Below are positions 3,852-38,770 of a stretch of 64,000 bases of DNA, piece after piece (positions within the stretch are counted from its first letter, which is position 1; every line of letters starts with the position of its first letter). Source of the DNA: Raja brachyura (Eukaryota); NCBI GenBank assembly GCA_963514005.1, contig OY740813.1, positions 16,120,001 through 16,184,000 on the forward strand, in the 5' to 3' direction. The notes below the pieces were generated by a model. It ran no database searches and was not told where the DNA came from. It was given only the letters and a program-made list of their open reading frames with translations. Both the position numbers and the translations under genes were made by a program.

Positions 3852-4183
3852 GTAAGATGTTCATTTGTGTATTTGTGTTTAAAATTGTTCTGCATGTGGC
3901 TCAGTCTCTCTTCGCTGAAGCATTGGGCTAGAGAATGAACTCTAATTGATGTAACAACCTAGAAAAATGGGGTGATATCTCTGGTCCATGGGATCTATGT
4001 AAGATGCTCTGTAACAACCCAGTCCAGAGGATTCAGCTCCCCATATATGACCACTTAGTTATCATAGAAAGGTCTCAATTCTGACTAAAGGTCTTAAACC
4101 TGAAATGTAAAACTCTGTTTATTTTCTTGCGTAGGCCGTCTACCATTCTAAGTTTATCCAGCTGTTTCTTTTCTTACTTATGA

Positions 4184-4506
4184 GTAGCAGAGCAGTGTAA
4201 CGGGTAGAGCCACTGCCTCACAACGACAGAGACTCACGTTTGATCCTGACCTTAGGTGCTATCTGTCTGTAGTTTACACTTTCTCCCTGTGACCGTGTGG
4301 GGTTTCCTCCTGGTTGTCCACTTTCCTTCTACATCCCAAAGAAGTGTGGGTTTTGTAGGCTGATTGGCCTGTGTAAATTGCCCCAAGGATGTAGGGAGTG
4401 AATGAGAAAATTGGATGACGTAGAACCGATGTGAGTGCGTGGCCGATGGTTGGTGGGGACTTGGTGGGCTAAAGGGCCTGTTTCCATGTAGTATCTCTAA
4501 ACTAAA
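4184..4506 (+). mobile_element. tRNA-derived V-SINE (HE1-like)
   Basis: Degenerate tRNA head, V-domain-like ggggtttcctcctggttgtccactttcc, and CR1-like tail aagggcctgtttccatg...ctctaaactaaa. Confidence 0.75.
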
Positions 4507-4734
4507 GTTATCATGTTGAAATGAAGATGCTGTAAATTGATTCCTAAAACTAATCCATTATATATTATTGTGCTTTATATTGTCAATAGATTTGTTCTTA
4601 ACAGTCTACGAATGTGGGTATTTCATGCTCAATGTGCTGGATCCAGGATCTTCACCAAAGCTCTGGGTCTTGGGTAGGGGCTGATGACCAGGATAAAGCA
4701 TCATATTTTGAGCTCCATCAGGGTTCTATCAGGA

Positions 4735-5171
4735 TCAACTTAGGCCTGTATTCACTGGAGTTTAGAAGGATGAGGGGAGATCTTATAGAAACATATAAAA
4801 TTATAAAAGGACTGGACAAGCTAGATGCAGGAAAAATGTTCCCAATGTTGGGTGAGTCCAGAACCAGGGGCCACAGTTTTAGAATAAAGGGGAGGTCATT
4901 TAAGACTGAGCTGAGAAAAAACTTTTTTACCCAGAGAGTTGTGAATTTATGGAATTCACTGCCACAGTGGGCAGTGGAGGCCAAATCACTGGATGGATTT
5001 AAGAGAGAGTTGGATAGAGCTCTAGGGGCTAGTGGAGTCAAGGGATATGGGTAGAAGGCAGGCACGGGTTATTGATAGCGGACGATCGGCCATGATCACA
5101 ATGAATGGCGGTGCTGGCTCGAAGGGCCGAATGGCCTCCTCCTGCACCTATTTTCTATGTTTCTATGTTTC
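4735..5171 (+). mobile_element. 5'-truncated young CR1 LINE 3' end
   Basis: LGLYSLEFRRMRGDLIETYKII...RTRGHS...FFTQRVVNLWNSLP, with 3' tail (tctatgtt)n. Confidence 0.92.
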
Positions 5172-7999
5172 AATAGTTTAGGGGGCTTATGTTTTCTGAG
5201 TGATGTGAAGCAATCCGTGTAAATTCAATTTTCTCCCGCAGAATGCTGGGGAAAGAAGTATAACAATATTGTCCCTTATCTGCTATTTAAGCAGCTGATG
5301 AGAAATTATTTTACAAAGCTCTCAAGGTCATTGTATTAAATATTCAGCTAACCTTTAATATTAACAAATCTTATGGAATGTCTAAAAATATATCTGCAAC
5401 ATATTGCAGCAGAAGAATATGATGGCATCTGGTGATATCAACAGATCCTACGACATTAAAATTTTCGATCGTTTAAATACATTTCCCAAGTTAAATCAAG
5501 AAGTTAACACCAACCATTCTGAAAAACAACAATATTCATCACCTTTAAATTCAACTGCAAGAAATGTAAGAAATACATTTCTCCGAGGATTTTTCATCTG
5601 GTTTATAATGAATGCTCTGCATTTATTGATAGAGTGTGTGATGGGGACACAGCCATGTTGTGATTCTGGGAATCCTCTGCTTTATATTACAAAGCATCAA
5701 TTCATATAGGAGAAAAAAAAAAGTTTGTTGACTCTGTATAGTGCTGGAAGCACAGCGAGTGTTTATCTTATTGAGTGTTTAGATTACCATCCTTGCTTTT
5801 TGCTGGCAGAATGTAATCAAAGATAGAAAAAGGGATTTTGCAGTATTATAGTGTGTGCCTGATAATTGTATGGCCTCAGCCATTAAAATAGTGTGATCAT
5901 TATTGTGATTATATGTGAATATAAATCTCAGACCTATCTGGTAATATTATAAACAGAAAAAGCAATGCTTTAGAATAGTAAACTATAACCCAATATTAGA
6001 TTACAGCCATAAATTAATCCTTAGCACATAATGTTTTTTATATGTGTAGCTTTTCGGTCATTTACAATAAAAACTAATTTACATAAGAGAAAGAAAGAGT
6101 CCAGAATATCATAATGATATCAAACAGAGCCCAAGTAACACATGTAGGGCAGACTGAGGGGACAAAATTGATTTTCAGCCATATTAAGTTTTCTCAAGGT
6201 CTTGGTGCCTGCTACTTGAAAATACTTGGATTATTAATTTAAGTCATATTTGCTCATACTTAATGTCTTTAATAGAGTGAATTGATGGGGTGGGGAGGAA
6301 GAGGGCAGAAAGGTAGAGGGACAAATGGGACAAAATAGTTCACCTCATCATTCAAGGAGAACACTTGTAGTTCTGCCTATGAAAGCTCCTACACCTAATA
6401 CAATGACTTGCCTTACTACAAAATGCACAACATTGTGTCTTAAGTAGAATCATTACATTAATTTGGTGGCATTACTCCATAATATGAAACAAAAGCAGTT
6501 TGGAACCTTCAATAACACAATATATTACAGGCTGAATTTGTTAAAATCTGCTGCAAGTATTAGTTGTACACATTTAAATGCTTAGAATGGAAAGAAAATA
6601 GACAGGGGGGGACTCAGAAGTAAAAAGAATCTTCAAAATTGTTGTCATTGGAATATGCTTTGAAGGAAACAAGCTGTGGCTAAGCCCCATCCAAAATTTC
6701 TCTGCATATTACATTTTTCAATTCCTAGGACACCCTGTAAGTATGTGTCCCATTAGCATATGTCAGTAATCATTTTATAAGTTGCCTGTCAGCCCAAGGC
6801 TGTTCTACCAGGTAATGTCAAGGAAAGAACACGACCCTCCAGTGTTCAGCAGATTGTGTGAATCGCTGGAGATCTGAGGGGGCAGCGTACACACCGTACT
6901 CAATCCCTCAACCTCTCCATCGCTTCCTCTGCATTCCTGAAACTCAAACTGCTGGGATATAACCATCTGCCTGCCTTAACAATGGCATCCTAGGTCTATT
7001 CTGGAAATTAGGTGGATGATAACAATTCCAGACATAAACAAATGAAGAATGGATTTATATTCATTAGGTGCCTTTAAGAATCAGGGTTAAATGTGCTCAG
7101 TACAGTGGTGTGACTGCACTGTGTTGCAATGAAAATGACAATTTTTCAGCAATTACTGACCTTCTCTGCCAAACCCTTATCTCTTATTCACTTATACCTA
7201 TAAAAACTCTTACTCGCCTTCAGCTCGGCCATCCCCTGCTACAGCCCTCATTTTTGTTCTTGAGCTGAAGGGACAGAGTGTGAATATAACGAACCTGTAC
7301 ATTGCCAGATGTAGCTCGAGCACATAAAGCTGGTTAAGGCCATGCTGTCAACTGGTAAAACTGCTCACCTCGTGGGTATCACCTTGAAATGCAGAGTTAA
7401 TCCCAGTCTTAATATGGCTACTGTAGACTGTTATTTTAAACTCCTTTTCCTTAACCCACATGTCCAGTAAAAGAATGCAAAGCTTGGTAGATTTGGTCAA
7501 TAGGATTGAGATCCTACACCTTTCTTCTTTCTTTATATCCAAAGTGTTAATGTTCCATTTCCCCAACCTCTAAACATGCGCCTTTCTTTAGTTTCTCTCC
7601 CATCTACCCCCAGGAACTCCCAGCTTTATCTCTTCACCATTTTCACTGACCCTTCTGGAATCCTCCACTCTCTCCAGTTATCAGTGTTTGCCCAGCGTCC
7701 ATTGATAGATAGGCTGTAATTTCCTCCAACTAAATATTTGGAAAAACAAAACTTCATCTTCAACCTCATCATAAACTCCTGTTCCCTCGCTACAGGTTTC
7801 ATCTCTTCCCTTTCTAAAGCTGAATCAGTCTGTTCACAATCTTGGTATCTAATCTGGTCCTAAAGTGAGTTCTGAACTTCTGTATCTGGAAGTCCAACTT
7901 TGCCCTGGTCTCAGTTTATCTGCTGTTTAAACCTTTTTTTTTCTTCTTTTTAAAAAAAACAATTTTTTTAATTATTATTTTTTAATTATTATTGGCAAG

Positions 8000-8735: not shown

Positions 8736-9085
8736 GAACAAGGGGTCACAGTTCCAGAACAAGGGGCCACAGTTCCAGAACAAGGGGTCACAGTCTAAGG
8801 ATAAGGGGGAATTCCTTTAGGACCGAAATGAGGAAAACATTCTTTACACAGAGAGTGGTGAGTCTCTGGAATTCTCTGCCACAGAAGGTAGTTGAGGCCA
8901 GTTCATTGGTTATATTTAAGAGGGCGTTAGATGTGGCACTTGTGGCTAAAGGGATCAGGGGGTATGGAGAGAAGGCAGGTACGGGATACTGAGTTGGATG
9001 ATCAACCATGATCACATTGAATGGCGGTGCAGGCTCGAAGGGCCGAATGGCCTACTCCTGCACCTATTTTCTATGTTTCTATGTA
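8736..9085 (+). mobile_element. 5'-truncated CR1 3' end
   Basis: RTRGHS-encoding region, [14 protein letters not shown], tail ttctatgtttctatg. Confidence 0.9.
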
Positions 9086-10120: not shown

Positions 10121-11511
10121 AATTTGTGCTGCAGGTCAATAACATGACTGTGGGGCTAAAGCGAGTGGAGTGAAAATTAATTCAACAGGAAAATAATGGG
10201 GCGCCGTATAGGCTTTTGATCTTCACAGCAGCACATTAGAACAGTAGAGAAAGTTTAAATTAATCAGCTTGCTATTTAGTATGACGGAATGGAAAAATAT
10301 AAATTAGCACTATTTCCAGTGGAATAAAAACAAGGAAGGATGAATTGATAGAGATATTTAAAATTAAGAGATTCAGCATGTTGCATGGAAATGAATACTT
10401 AGAAGTTCATCCCCATTTGCTAGATATACTGTATAATAATGGCAGTTGAAGTTAATAGAATGTAATTTCATAAAAAAGTAAAATGCATTGATCAGCACTT
10501 GCCAAGGATAAATGCCTGACAAGAATATTTTCAATAAATGAGAGATCTGAAGCAAGGGACAGAGGTGTAAGGTTAAATCTAAAAAATATTCAAACAAAGA
10601 AAATAATTTACACAGAGAGTTGTAGCAGAGACCATGTCAACACAAGGTTAATGTGGGTAGCTTGAGGTAAAGGGAATAATGTTCTGTAAGGATGGTTGGA
10701 AATATAGGGATCATTGTTATCAATCAGTTGTAGGATTAGGTATTTTAGGTGTAACATAGAAACATATAGAAAATAGGTGCAGGAGTAGGCCATTCAGCCC
10801 TTCGAGCCTACACCACCATTCAATATGATCATGACTGATCATCCAACTCAGTATCCTGTACCTGCCTTCTCTCCATACCCCCTGATCCCTTTAGCCACAA
10901 GGGCCACATCTAACTCCCTCTTAAATATGGCCAATGAACTGGCCACAACTACCTTCGGTGGCAGAGAATTCCAGAGACTCACCACTCTCTGTGTGAAAAA
11001 TGTTTTCCTCATCTCGGTCCTAAAAGAAATCCCCCTTATCCTTAGACTGTGACCCCTTGTTCTGGACCTCCCCAACATCTGGAACAATCTTCCTGCATCT
11101 AGCCTATCCAATGCCTTAAGAATTTTGTAAGTTTCTACACGATCCCCCTCAGTCTTCTAAATTCTAGCGAGTACAAGCCAAGTCTATCCAGTCTTTCCTC
11201 ATATGAAGGTCCTGACATCCCAGGAATCAGTCTGGTGAACCTTCTATGTACCCCCTCTATGGCAAGAATGTCTTTTCTCAGATTTGGAGACCAAAACTGT
11301 ACGCAATACTCAGGGTGTGGTCTCACCAAAACCCTGTACAACTGCAGTAGAACCTCTCTGCTCCTATACTCAAATCCTTTCGCTATGAATGCTAACATAC
11401 CATTTGCTTTATTCACTGCCTGCTGCACCTGCATGCCTACTTTCAATGGTACACAAAAGGCTGGAGAAACTCAACGGGTGCAGCAGCATCTAAGGAGCGA
11501 AGGAGATAGGC

Positions 11512-11539
11512 GACGTTTCGGGCCGAAACCCTTCTTCAG
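11512..11539 (-). ncRNA. Minimal type I hammerhead ribozyme motif (mirror copy)
   Basis: Exact reverse complement of 11541-11568. Confidence 0.7.
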
Positions 11540-11540
11540 T

Positions 11541-11568
11541 CTGAAGAAGGGTTTCGGCCCGAAACGTC
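11541..11568 (+). ncRNA. Minimal type I hammerhead ribozyme motif
   Basis: CTGAAGA-A-GGG-tttcgg-CCC-GAAAC-GTC: CUGANGA core, helix II, GAAA, palindromic ACGT helix III and GUC triplet. Confidence 0.7.
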
Positions 11569-14055
11569 GCCTATCTTCTTCGCTCCTTAGATGCTGCTGC
11601 ACCCGCTGAGTTTCTCCAGCCATTTGTGTACCCTCGATTCGCCAGCATCTGCAGTTCCTTCTTTAACACTTTGCCTACTTTCAATGACTGGTGTTCCATG
11701 ACACCCAGGTCTCGTTGCATCTCCCCTTTTCCTAACTTGCCACCATTCAGATAATAGTCTACCCACCTGTTTTTGCCATCAAAGTGGATAACCTCACATT
11801 TATCCACATTATACTGCATCTGCCATGCATTTGCCCACTCACCCAGCCTATCCAAGTCACCTTGCAGCCTCCTAGCATCCTCCTCACACCTAACACTACC
11901 TCCCAGCTTAGTGTCATCCGCAAACTTGGAGATGTTGCATTCAATTCCCTCGTCCAAATCATTAATATATATTCTAAATAGCTGGGATCCCAGCACTGAG
12001 CCTTGTGTAATTCTTTGTAATTGCAACTTTTGCTCATGGACTTCCTTTAACATGGAAAAACTTTCCAAAGTACTTCCCAGAAGTGTTAAAAAACAGGCAA
12101 AACTGGCTATTCAAGTAAATTGGATCCAGCAGCTCATTCTTGGTTCTTAATGCCGTTTTTATATCCCAAATGCAAACTAGATACTTATGGGTTCATATGT
12201 GAAACTTGCATTATTCTTAAAATATTCCAGTTCAAAAAATATTCAAAAACAGATTAATTCTCCTAGACTTTAGCCCCTCAGTGCCTGAAAATTCTTTCTC
12301 ACTTAAAAGCTCTGACTCTGTTTTCAGGTTACGCCTCAGCTTGATATGTCTTTAGTACACATCGTGTACTGTTGAATTTTCTGAGAAAACCCTAAAAAAT
12401 GAATAATTAGCCTTGGTGGATTGAATGCTGATGCAGTCAAAACCTTACTAGATCTCTCAGTGTTAGGTTATGAGGAGAAATGAAGTCAGCTTATATTCCC
12501 AAACATATAAAAGATTACAACTGATGTTCGAAAATAATTGATGGAGTAGATACAAGGATTGATGGAGTAGATCCTGACAGTAGCGGTATCCAGGGCATTA
12601 AGATTTAACCTGGAGAATAGGTTGAAACTAGAAAACAATTCTTCAAGCATAACGTGGATGCATCTAACTTTTTCCCACAAAAAATACCAGCTGGTGACTC
12701 ATTTATCAATTCCAAATTGAGGGGTTCAGTACATTTTTGCTGTTCAAACGTTTTGTTATTAAAGGATGTCAATCAGGGATGGACAGATGGATTTAGGACA
12801 GGTGGGCCATGTTCCCTCTGAATTACAGTGTAGAGTTAAGGGATGAATGTCCTATACCATGTTCCTGTTTCTTTTCAAAGATGATTATTGAAAATAGAAT
12901 GGCATAGATTTTGCTCAGAATTTACTACTTTAAGCCAGAACTGCTGCAAAGGAAACTTCCTCAACAAATCTGGGTCTAGACCAGCAAGATCTCATGCAAC
13001 ACATAGATCGATTATTGATCGAATTACAATGCTTGGATACAAGTCACCCACAAGGCATAAGCAGCAGGTAAAATTGTCAAACAGCTCAAATATTTGTGAA
13101 TTACAACTCACAAATCTTCTGATCTCAGATTTTAAATTATTAATCAGTGTCAAAGAGTCATACAACACGGGAACAGGACCTTGGGCCCAACTTCCTCATG
13201 CCGACCAAGCAGCCCCACCTGCTCTAGTCCCACCTTCCCACCAGGCCCATATCCTTCCAAACCTTTGTGCTGCTTTTTGAGGGAGATATTTACATTCTTC
13301 CAACATATGCCTGAGAAATCTAATTTCTCACTTGGCCTTGGCTCTGTTTTTATTGTTATGACCCATGGTTATGTTCAAGATTTTTGGCAACTTCTAATAG
13401 CAGTCGATGTCTCTCTGCTTCCTTAATCAATTCCTTTCAAAATCCTAAAACCCAAGACTATAACTAGTGCAACCTTGTAAGATTTTCTCCATTCAAATAT
13501 TATGACAATTATGCTCATGGCAACATGGCCAAACCACAATCGAAAAGTAGCCCTAAAACATTTTGGAGTCAGTAGAAAGACAGCCTAAAATGACTTGTTT
13601 GAGGACAGTGGACTATATATAGGATAATTGGGAAGGTTATCCTTGTTCCCCTTCATTCAAAGCCAGGTAGCATTATTGCAACTTAATGTTTCCAAGGAAC
13701 AACATTTCATTGTTAAAATGTAGACAGAAATTGATATCATGTTAATTTATCCAGGCACAATGAGGAATTTGGTCTTTCCAGGTTACTCCTGTTTCTAAAC
13801 ATTAGGACTCCTCTTTTATATCTCTGTTTGGTATGCATGGAATCTCAGCAACAAACTTAAATTATCAAAGGATACTCTCTGTGCTTTTGAGACAATTAAC
13901 TACCTTTGCTTTTCTTCTCAGAAACAAGGCTAGACATGACATGGCATTTAAAAGCAGCCACTGCATTTACACAATTTCATACTTCCATCTTTAATAAATT
14001 CAAAATAGTATTAGTAGTCTCTAATGCTGAATGTTAAGTCTTCTGGTCACTCATA

Positions 14056-14249: not shown

Positions 14250-15478
14250 AAATTAAATTGATTTGGAAAGGCACAAACCTATTTATATAAGGTCCCACAG
14301 TTGACAGTACATGTCGGTGCAAAAACCAAGTCATGAAGACAGGATTGTGTCGAGACACAGATCTGGGGAAGGGTATAAAACAATTTCTGCAGCATTGCAG
14401 GTCCCGAAGAGCACAGTGGCATTTGTAAATGAAAGAACTTTGGAACCAGCAGGGCTCTTCATAGAGCTGGCTGCCCAGCCAAACTGAGCAATCGGGGGAG
14501 AAGGGCCTTGATCAGGGAGGTGACCAAGAACCCGATGGGCACTCTAACAGTGCTCCAGAGTTCCTCTGTGGATATGGGAGAACCTTCCAGAAGGACAACT
14601 ATATCTGCAGCACTCCACCAATCAGGCCTTTATGATAGAGTGGCCAGACGGAAGCCGAGGTAAAAGGCACATGGAGTTTGCCTAAAGGCACCTAAAGGAC
14701 CGTCAGACCATGAACTCTTTGGAATTGAACTCATTGGCCTGAATGCTTGCGTCACGTCTGGAGGAAACCAGGCACCACTCATCACCTGGCCAGTACCATA
14801 CCTACGGTGAAGCATGGTTGTGGCAGCATCATGCTGTGGGCATGTTTTTCAGCGGCAGGAACTGGGAGACTAGTCAGGATTGTGGAAAAGATGAACGGAG
14901 CAAAGTACAGAGAGATCCTTGATGAAAACCTGCCCCAGAGCGTTCTGGACCTCAGACTGGGGCGGAGGTTCACCTTCCAACAGGACAACGACCCTAAGGA
15001 CACAGTCAAGACAACACAGGAGTGGCTTTGTTACAAGTTTGTGAATGTCCTTGAGTGGCCCTGAGTTGAACCCGATCGAATATCTCTGGAGGGACCTAAC
15101 AATAGCTGTGCATTGACGCTCCCCATCCAACCTGATAGAGCTTGAGCGGATCTGCAGAGAAGAAATGGAGAATTTACCCAAATACAGGTGTGCCAAGCTA
15201 GTAGCGTCATACCCAAGAAGACTTGAGGCTGTAATCACTGCCAAAGGTGCCTCAACAAAGTACTGAGTAAAGGGTCTGAATACTTACATAAATGTGATAT
15301 TTCAGTTATTACTTTTTTATTTACGTTGCAAAATTTCTAAACACCTGTTTTTGCTTTTTTATTATGGGGTATTGTGTGTAGATTGATGATTTTTTTAAAA
15401 ATTTAATCCATTTTAGAATAAGGCTGTAACAATATGCGGAAAAAAGTGATGGGGTCTGAATATTTTCTGAATGCACTG
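14250..15478 (+). mobile_element. 5'-truncated Tc1/mariner DNA transposon (IR/DR type) with decayed transposase
   Basis: ATG at 14333. VWRKPG...TVKHGCGSIMLWACF...FQQDNDPK...WP...LNPIEYLW (DD34E family). TKY-TGA ends at 15266. Direct repeats ggtctgaata at about 15271 and 15451. Terminus aatgcactg followed by TA. Confidence 0.93.
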
Positions 15479-24050: not shown

Positions 24051-24173
24051 ATTGGCCCTCACCTGGATACATTCCGGAGTGCTGAAGCTCGGCATGCAGC
24101 TTTTAGAGCAAACTGGCTGGATTCTGCAGCAAGGAGCGGTCCCAATGGCGAAGGTGTCTATGCCCTTAATTAA
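24051..24173 (+). CDS. cfap77: CFAP77 last coding exon
   Basis: ttttgcttgtttttgcag acceptor. IGPHLDTFRSAEARHAAFRANWLDSAARSGPNGEGVYALN-TAA matches recalled human C-terminus [40 protein letters not shown] in length (40 aa) and in the HLDTF motif. Phase is compatible with the previous exon. Confidence 0.88.
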   Translation: MGPHLDTFRSAEARHAAFRANWLDSAARSGPNGEGVYALN

Positions 24174-32944: not shown

Positions 32945-33152
32945 TGTAGACACAAAATGCTGAACTCAGCGGGAGAGGCAACATGTCTGGATAGAAGGAA
33001 TGAGTGACGTTTCACGTTGAGTCCATTCTTCAGACTGTCTTGTCCCAAAATGTCACCCATTCCTTCTATCCAGAGATGCTGCTGGTCCTGCTGAGTTACT
33101 CCAGCATTTTGTGTCTATCTTCAGTGTAAACCAGCATCTGCAGTTCCTTCTT
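32945..33152. mobile_element. Older palindromic Penelope-derived element
   Basis: tagacacaaaatgctg...gacgtttc...ttcttcag followed by its inverted copy gtcacccattcc...cagcattttgtgtcta and the terminus ccagcatctgcagttccttc. Confidence 0.75.
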
Positions 33153-37454: not shown

Positions 37455-38770
37455 ACGAAGATAGACACAAAATGCTGGAGTAACTCAGAGGGACAGGCAG
37501 CATCTCAGGAGAGAAGGAATGGGTGATGTTTCGGGTCGAGACCCTTCTTCAGACTGGTTAGGGATCAGGGAAACGAGAGAGATAGATGGTGATGTGGGGA
37601 GATAAAGAACAATGAATGAAAGATAAGCAAAAAAGTATCGATGATAAAGGAAACAGGCCATTGTAAGCTGTTTGTAGTGTGAAAATGAGAAGCCAGTGCG
37701 ACTTGGGTGGGGTTAGAGATAGAGAGAGAAGGAATGCCAGGGCCCGAGGGCTGAGGGAGAGGTGGGAAGGGGAGGAGACAGCAAGGATTAACAGAATTGA
37801 GAAAAATCAATGTTTAAGCCCAGAGGATGCAGACTCCCCAAGCGGAATATGAGGTGCTGTTCCTCCAGCTTGCGGTGTTGCTCACTCTGGCCGTGGAGGA
37901 AGCCCAGGACCGAGAGGTCGGATACGGAATGGGAGGGGGAGTTGAAGTGCTTGTTATCGGGGGAGATGGAGATACAGAGATAAGGAAGTGTAAGGTGTGA
38001 AAACAGGACAATGGGAATCGAGATTTAGGAAAATGCAGAATAGATCATTGTTGTCTGGGAGAAGGCAACAACAAAGCAAACTGAGATAAACTAGCCGGAG
38101 GCGGTAGGACCGATCGGAGAACTGGGAGGGGGAGGGATGAACAGAAAGGGAAAGCAATGGTTACCTGAAGTTAGAGAAGTCAATGCCCATACCGCTGGGG
38201 TGTAAACTGCCCAAGCGAAATATAATTTGCGCTGGGCCTCACTGTGTCAGATTTCGCTTGGGCATCTTACACCCCAGCGGTATGAACATTGATTTCTCGA
38301 ACTTCAAGTAACCCTTGCTTTCCCTCTCTCTCCATCCCTCCCATTTCCCATTTATGTAGTTGGAGTCAGCCCTACTGTCTCCGACTACAGTTCTACATCT
38401 CTGTTTGCTGTGTTGTTACATTCTCCCAGCTAACTGTTCTACATTTTCTGTTAAAGAAGGAACTGCAGATGCTGGAGAATCGAGGGTTACACAAAAGCTG
38501 GATAAACTCAGCGGGTGCAGCAGCATCTAAGGATTGAAGGAGATAGGCGACGTTTCGGGTCGAGACCCTTCTTCATCTCGATTCCTTTGTCCTGTTTTTC
38601 ACACCTGACACTTCCTCATCTCAGTATCTCCCTCTGCCCTGACATCAGCCCGAAGAAGGGGCTCGACCTGTCACCCATTGCTTCATCCCAGAGATGCTGC
38701 CGGTCTCGCTGAGACACTCCATCATTTTGTGTCTATCTTCGGTTAAAAACCAGCATCTGCAGTTCCTTCA
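37455..38770. mobile_element. Composite Penelope-like cluster (tandem and inverted 3' ends)
   Basis: Minus 37803-37952 encodes KHFNSPSHSVSDLSVLGFLHGQSEQHRKLEEQHLIFRLGSLHPLGLNIDF (C-terminus of the PLE GIY-YIG domain). Inversion centred near 38235. Hammerhead-like cores at about 37525-37552, 38549-38576 and 38650-38675. Confidence 0.85.

Follow-up and report, generated by a model that had tools for sequence, protein, structure and literature searches.

A head-to-head mini-palindrome in a cfap77 intron of Raja brachyura as a short footprint of a young Penelope-like element

Penelope-like elements that encode an endonuclease (EN+ PLEs) typically leave an insertion in which a pseudo-long terminal repeat (pLTR) is accompanied by an adjacent, inverted and 5´-truncated copy, with a palindromic junction, a tail at one end and a target-site duplication (TSD) of variable length, according to the available text of two studies (PMC3846280, PMC8557442). 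The tail is given there as 30–40 bp (Craig et al. 2021, PMC8557442). This work concerns a 223-bp insert (11449–11671) in the genome of the skate Raja brachyura, located in a stretch of 64,000 nucleotides (contig OY740813.1, positions 16,120,001 to 16,184,000) that is referred to below as the window. A preliminary description, made from the sequence alone, had suggested that the insert belongs to an undescribed family of replicating, retrozyme-like palindromes carrying two hammerhead ribozymes. The insert is instead a known kind of PLE footprint and not a new self-copying ribozyme element.

The biochemistry of integration has been addressed in PAc, a Poseidon element of Anolis carolinensis (Frangieh et al. 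2024, PMC11167929). The accessible text of that study reports that two internal start sites of reverse transcription bracket the tail in vitro, that the protein nicks and extends both target strands and is predicted to form a dimer, that the hammerhead needs its protein in order to cleave, and that insertion in vitro can do without the hammerhead. The family of the insert resembles PAc in having two putative start sites around the tail, deduced here from the element ends, and in a cut site that is not marked by such ends. However, the open reading frame (ORF) of PAc starts inside the hammerhead, whereas the candidate ATG of the skate element lies at ~+164, with unit position +1 defined as the C of CUGA. 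The accessible text of the PAc study contains no treatment of the 5´ junction or of the palindrome centre.

Two further systems are close to the insert. Minimal hammerheads (min-HHRs) of metazoan PLEs were already noted in 2014 to form opposite-strand pairs 100–700 bp apart, in the part of the study that was available (Cervera and de la Peña, PMC4209133). Non-LTR retrozymes, as described in the accessible part of a preprint (Li et al. 2026, bioRxiv 10.64898/2026.07.22.740005), share with the insert a short, non-coding sequence, a type I hammerhead and kinship with PLE pLTRs. Nevertheless, every unit of a retrozyme has a hammerhead and the units form direct tandem repeats, whereas the insert is an inverted pair that gives no sign of being copied as a unit. 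A literature search on such palindromes in cartilaginous fish found none, with Repbase/Dfam entries and most subscription papers outside its reach, and figure S2 of PMC11167929 may already show the 5´ hot spot described below.

The structure of the insert was reproduced as first described, including its coordinates, the 15-nt direct repeats of 100% identity that flank it and the 92-bp arms inverted around the single T at 11540, which are identical at 89 of 92 positions (Table 1). The alignment of the arms can be extended to 97 nt at 95% identity, and the insert folds as a single hairpin of −180.1 kcal/mol (z −26 against 200 shuffles). Its placement in a CR1 and in the cfap77 pre-mRNA was confirmed as well. 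A minus-strand RT frame (RT, reverse transcriptase) of CR1 type is split by the insert, with the TSD residues duplicated; the host long interspersed nuclear element is presumably a CR1, to judge by the C-termini of CR1 RTs. On the plus strand, a CFAP77 (PF14825) exon lies ~30 kb upstream of the window and a second exon within it matches, over 24051–24170, the CFAP77 C-terminus (E 4.4e-5), so that the insert, with exons on either side, is intronic in cfap77. A query of the ESM Atlas with the cfap77 exon returned nothing useful.

Table 1. Positions of the insert, its parts and its surroundings in the window.
Feature	Positions	Strand	Remarks
Left TSD copy, 15 bp (CR1 sequence)	11434..11448	+	Direct repeat, CR1 frame
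Inverted pLTR arm, unit positions 1–92, without tail; outer end is the putative upstream start site of reverse transcription	11448..11539	-	
Minimal type I hammerhead motif, inverted arm	11512..11539	-	
Head-to-head junction CAG-T-CTG	11537..11543	.	Quasi-palindrome pre-exists in the parent element, just upstream of CUGA
Minimal type I hammerhead motif, direct arm	11541..11568	+	Predicted cut after 11568
Direct pLTR arm, unit positions 1–92; contains the conserved AGAUGCUG stem strand and an inner hairpin	11541..11632	+	
PLE tail (~36 bp, on one arm only) and the first few bases after the tail in tandem elements	11633..11671	+	
Putative downstream start site of reverse transcription	outer end of 11633..11671	+	Available text of PMC8557442, PMC11167929
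Right TSD copy	11672..11686	+	Direct repeat
Host CR1-type LINE fragment split by the insert (bounds approximate)	10848..11990	-	RT-like frames on both sides
cfap77 terminal coding exon	24051..24173	+	CFAP77 C-terminus match

The arms of the insert are pLTRs of an abundant young PLE, and the derivation from such an element, proposed at the outset, holds. Seventeen further copies of the arm lie within the window, and the common upstream sequence of some of them can be followed through a 3´ untranslated region (3´ UTR) to a GIY-YIG endonuclease. Searching the genome at the protein level produced 125,350 first-look candidates, of which 150 were scored, all of them 95–100% identical. Long copies have the terminal repeat behind an RT and GIY-YIG frame, and one candidate lies in a stop-free frame of 920 amino acids that combines RVT_1 (E 3.5e-6) with a C-terminal GIY-YIG domain (E 0.001), both just below the Pfam cut-offs, and the family may be recently active. 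This frame (3931–6693, minus strand) is found at locus L113 (G000:C16:2931501-2941500), which also carries an inverted 5´ part; a second match is a frame of 867 amino acids (G000:C6:48708781). Exact 70-base copies of the commonest young form of the arm number 16,713, and the arm variant of the insert is also present on the ORF-bearing copy L120.

As in other EN+ PLEs, the RT and the C-terminal GIY-YIG domain are associated with internal cysteines. A CX4CxxC linker (CNRKRCYTC) upstream of GIY-YIG fits the CX2-5CxxC motif between RT and endonuclease that defines Neptune and Nematis and is missing from Penelope and Poseidon in the available text of PMC8557442, and the element is likely of Neptune type, judging by this motif. 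Tandem copies with a period of ~4 kb occur at L115 and L122, in which a short leader separates the tail from the candidate ATG; these copies are 99% identical (period ~4.0 kb). A PLE 3´ fragment at 37465–37951 of the window (minus strand) combines a pLTR of another subfamily with an endonuclease end and a 3´ UTR that belong to the young family, and it ends without a tail, which suggests that pLTR variants swap on similar bodies.

Whether the palindrome is a family in its own right was assessed by comparing its copies. A search with the whole insert recovered at least 40 loci that match nearly all of it at 89–100%, with the same ends and TSDs of their own, so the recurrence that had been anticipated was seen. 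However, these loci are selected by similarity, and three less biased samples were analysed: 30 loci found through the 3´ 69 bases, 864 kb of unselected sequence (the window with the adjacent 200 kb, and three further stretches of 200 kb each) and the first 30 symmetric centres by position. In the first sample, about half of the loci have no inverted arm and the remainder show varied centres. The 864 kb contain 224 arms, whose pairs comprise 36 head-to-head against 1 tail-to-tail and 2 direct; this agrees with the inverted-terminus architecture that had been put forward for the insert and not with the direct repeats of retrozymes. An exact symmetric centre is found in 1 of these 36 pairs, which is the locus at 11434–11686 itself. 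By rough extrapolation, the genome would hold head-to-head pairs of the order of 10^5, and 1,449 exact symmetric centres were counted in it.

The symmetric centres can be read relative to the tail, and the first 30 comprise 13 T, 12 A and 5 unassigned (12 T to 10 A after collapsing duplicated loci). A copied master would fix the polarity of the centre, and the near equality of T and A argues against a replicating palindrome. Odd centres that recur in the similarity-chosen set trace to duplicated loci with the same flanks, and a fixed, inherited centre and polarity at independent loci was not found in these samples. In summary, the idea of a replicating, retrozyme-like palindromic family does not hold: centres differ between copies, which the preliminary description had itself named as the mark of one-off inversion during insertion, the two polarities are about equally common, solo pLTRs and kilobase-long inverted insertions have the same two outer ends as the palindromes, and the arm variant of the insert occurs on ORF-bearing elements.

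Several loci illustrate passive copying. At L008, L009, L014, L015 and L019 (G000:C19, ~45.98-46.06 Mb), the same palindrome and flanks are repeated every ~3.8 kb in a tandem array, and L238–L240 (C1, ~3.05 Mb) form another array that carries the element with a repeat of ~3.5 kb. A second, older head-to-head mini-palindrome, from a different pLTR subfamily, is present in the window (32947–33152); its short arm measures 91 and its long arm 124. The mini-palindromes at L124 and L120 were considered as 5´ ends of full-length elements and rejected, being separate insertions, with a TSD of its own in the case of L124.

The outer ends of the arms cluster at two sites. Among the 224 arms of the 864 kb, the 3´ ends are bimodal, at ~84–98 (about 93) and ~122–131 (about 129), and a short arm is combined with a long arm in 33 of the 36 unselected pairs. 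The tail of ~36 bp is present on exactly one arm in 52 of 54 distinct palindromes, a set that was partly selected. The insert and its relatives display what is described for EN+ PLE units: an inverted, 5´-truncated pLTR copy placed head to head with a palindromic junction, a tail of 30–40 bp at one end, partial tandems and a variable TSD. They differ from the usual units in being reduced to two pLTR arms, at loci of the order of 10^5 by the rough extrapolation above, and in having the inner ends of both arms at a single hot spot immediately 5´ of the hammerhead.

Kilobase-long inverted insertions, in which either arm can be the longer (L053, L114, L117, L122, L126), share the two outer ends of the palindromes, and solos end at either of the two sites. 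At L053 and L059 the arm without a tail extends further 5´ than its tailed partner and so cannot be a copy of it, and the long arm of L114 and L117 lacks the tail. At the right TSD of the insert, 7 of the first 8 bases agree with what follows in the element beyond the end of the insert, which suggests that priming occurred by microhomology on an RNA extending past the tail. Two palindromes depart from the one-tail pattern, L021 and L024, with tail-like sequence on both arms, and L021 runs on into the element body. Only one subfamily has a telomere-like TAACCC at its upstream start site, and this motif was treated as chance.

The inner ends were examined on the 16,713 perfect arms, of which 13,909 retain 2 parental upstream bases, 8,484 retain 4 and 6,328 retain 6, meaning that the parental match is lost within 6 nt in ~62%. 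The 5´ ends pile up 1–6 nt upstream of CUGA. Half of 30 young arms taken in order of position (15) start between −8 and +1, and the other 15 extend from 149 to >1,400 bases upstream. Among 30 copies with the 5´ region of the element, 5 start at −2 to −5, 1 at the predicted cut site, 4 elsewhere inside or just after the pLTR and 19 further upstream, with 1 unresolved. The parent element carries CAG-T-CTG across this hot spot. Other centres show deletions, short templated inserts or, at L055, a piece of the ORF start.

The two arms of one insertion are alike. They share 46 non-reference variants against 11.6 expected (maximum 25 in 1000 shuffles), and at a dimorphic site 50 of 53 arm pairs are concordant for the two common states. 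These variants indicate that both complementary DNAs (cDNAs) of one insertion are from the same source, and probably from the same RNA molecule. A pairing predicted between the 5´ end and the tail shows no covariation and was not used as evidence.

Other origins of the 5´ ends were rejected. Cleavage by the hammerhead should place them at +29, where 3 of 224 arms and 1 of the 30 copies with a 5´ region start, with no peak. The single copy is L178 (G000:C7:34912089-34915344), near-perfect and with a 5´ region, which begins exactly at the predicted cut site. A splice model, with an acceptor before CUGA, a donor-like site near +165 and tandem hammerhead exons, was discarded for integrated copies: a search for the joined form gave just two matches, with one mismatch and from a single locus, and solos abut the TSD directly. 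In the tandems of L115 and L122, the candidate ATG is immediately preceded by a splice-donor-like site, and CUGA by an acceptor-like pyrimidine tract.

The hammerhead core is intact on each arm, and the direct arm presents in order CUGAAGA, an extra A, helix II with its tetraloop and GAAAC-GUC. Four additional traits of PLE min-HHRs are present on each arm, including the extra nucleotide between 9 and 10.1, the G10.1–C11.1 pair and a palindromic helix III (15.2–16.2), as listed in the accessible text of PMC4209133. The minimal type I hammerheads claimed at first thus stand as to the core, but two of the stems need correction: helix II fits 4 bp closed by a UUCG/CUCG tetraloop better than 3 bp, and helix I, which had passed without comment, has 2 possible pairs followed by mismatches. 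According to the same text, helix I usually has 4–5 bp, with 2 bp in a D. virilis variant, and the context of the parent element cannot lengthen it in the skate either. The helix II pairs are kept in 33–36 of 37 full arms, which indicates that the motif has been under constraint in the source elements. An Rfam search of the insert gave no hammerhead match and only sub-threshold microRNA hairpin models.

Each strand of the palindrome contains one sense hammerhead, with the antisense arm preceding it. The palindrome consequently offers no dimer partner in cis, and the predicted state in the cfap77 pre-mRNA is an inert long hairpin. Predicted folds of the naked RNA place CUGA inside other helices, and the 92-bp hairpin would likely keep the hammerhead from folding, leaving the palindrome dead on arrival.

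In twin priming of L1, both ends of the target prime cDNA synthesis, each on a different region of the RNA. Retroviral strong-stop DNA, for its part, is a short run-off product primed near the 5´ end of the RNA. The insert is, with good probability, the shortest form of PLE insertion, two pLTRs placed head to head by two target-primed reverse transcriptions in a single landing. Staggered nicks ~15 bp apart would produce the TSD, and each nick would prime one cDNA on RNA of the same source, at the two start sites that bracket the tail (~93 and ~129). Both cDNAs would run off at the 5´ end of the RNA, where an internal promoter, such as D. virilis Penelope has (PMC2377424), probably places the start of transcription at ~−3; with priming in the first pLTR of such an RNA, the products would measure ~95 and ~130 bases and resemble strong-stop DNA. 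Unlike in L1 twin priming, both cDNAs would cover the same part of the RNA, hence the palindrome. Their 3´ ends would then be joined by microhomology, most simply through the self-complementary CAG-A-CTG, with a predicted energy of ~−5.5 kcal/mol and one central mismatch when the end reaches −4. Fixation of this mismatch as T or A at random would account for the even split of the centres.

Different observations weigh against this two-priming reading. The 24 sequencing runs that were listed consist of assembled contigs, with an RNA status that was mostly guessed, and no start, end, strand or editing signal can be read from them, so that the RNA 5´ end of the model is putative; the hot spot at −3 could be one of cleavage, pausing or repair instead of a start. 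The 19 of 30 copies that extend upstream of the pLTR require additional templates longer than the unit, from read-through of tandems or from circles. Some of the loss of upstream bases may reflect point variants or other 3´ UTR subfamilies, since such variants were seen. The annealing predicted for the cDNA ends is weak, and the shared arm variants could also be explained by a dominant source locus, subfamily timing or later conversion between arms. Moreover, the TSD of 13–20 bp seen in 51 of 55 palindromes was scored with one mismatch allowed and no shuffled control. Finally, the in vitro work on start sites, in the accessible text of PMC11167929, was done on a Poseidon element and not on one of Neptune type.

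Among the alternatives, the one that survives best keeps the two-priming route but replaces the template with a non-coding RNA of ~130–170 nt, transcribed from solo pLTRs or palindrome centres and mobilised in trans, which would make the unit similar to a short interspersed nuclear element. This seems unlikely. In its favour, pLTR-only arms far outnumber body-bearing ones, the loss of parental match within 6 nt is in line with such an RNA, and in each of the four runs the contigs cover the pLTR far more deeply than the body. It would require an internal, possibly bidirectional promoter, and the unit, rather than the palindrome, would be a non-autonomous PLE derivative, a proposal to which we give the same limited credence; D. 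virilis Penelope is known to have an internal promoter (PMC2377424), a rotifer element needs no more than pLTR sequences in trans and non-autonomous PLEs exist, according to the accessible text of PMC3846280 and PMC8557442 for the latter two. However, the insert, L203, L216 and L021 include bases whose position after the tail is peculiar to tandem or full elements, and these bases point to a long RNA template, as does the ORF-start fragment at the centre of L055. The presence of the insert's arm variant on L120 also speaks against a separate short RNA, and no pLTR-only subfamily with private diagnostic changes was seen in a search that was not exhaustive.

It has also been considered that a single cDNA or antisense template folds back, primes on itself at a small palindrome and copies the inverted arm. 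Self-priming of an antisense template was proposed in the accessible text of Arkhipova et al. 2013 (PMC3846280), and it would explain both the variants shared by the arms and the coincidence of the centre with a pre-existing CAG-N-CTG quasi-palindrome. Nevertheless, this route is improbable for the skate palindromes: a tail-primed cDNA would yield T centres only, yet A is as common, and a tail-less cDNA cannot make the tail. It is also at odds with L053 and L059, whose tail-less arm holds sequence that the tailed arm lacks, and with L114 and L117, whose long arm is tail-less. That the 223-bp palindrome itself replicates through RNA processed by its hammerheads is hardly credible. The 40 or more whole-insert matches and the 1,449 exact symmetric centres speak for it, but those matches were chosen by similarity, the symmetric centres sampled have no fixed polarity and unselected pairs differ in centre, retrozymes are direct tandems in the available part of the preprint, helix I is of 2 bp and the cut site is rarely an element end.

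The two-priming reading can be taken a step further. The ~10^5 mini-palindromes may constitute a natural record of a missing step of PLE integration, in which a dimeric ribonucleoprotein with a single RNA would prime at both target ends and the strong-stop-like cDNAs would anneal via CAG-A-CTG, a proposal to which we would give slightly less than an even chance. If true, head-to-head inversions would be explained without antisense self-priming, the 5´ boundary of the pLTR would be the transcription start, with a downstream promoter element overlapping helix III of the hammerhead, and the genome would have been left with hammerhead cores and intronic 90-bp hairpins in the hundreds of thousands.

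The architecture of the insert was already known, and its value lies in the mechanistic read-out of PLE integration that it provides. The formation of inverted ends and the completion of integration are still open: in their accessible text, PMC11167929 leaves steps unvalidated and PMC3846280 proposed antisense self-priming. With 16,713 perfect arms and 1,449 exact symmetric centres, the family is sufficiently young and numerous for models to be tested by counting: the genome sequence itself yields the asymmetry of the tail, the polarity of the centre, the agreement between arms and the hot spot at the 5´ end. Furthermore, pipelines and readers concerned with transposable elements will mistake such stumps for miniature inverted-repeat transposable elements, microRNA hairpins or retrozymes, and the many long intronic hairpins could be substrates as double-stranded RNA.

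Some minor observations concern the target site and its surroundings. The CR1 target duplicated at 11434–11448 resembles the candidate start-codon region of the PLE at ~12 of 14 bases (L115, minus strand, ~3514–3500) and also the bases just past the tail, which may reflect either homology-guided target choice or chance. A second 3´ fragment of CR1 type lies near the host CR1, at 8738–9051 on the plus strand. The same cfap77 intron contains transposase fragments at ~14430–15280, which are Tc1/mariner-like by their motifs.

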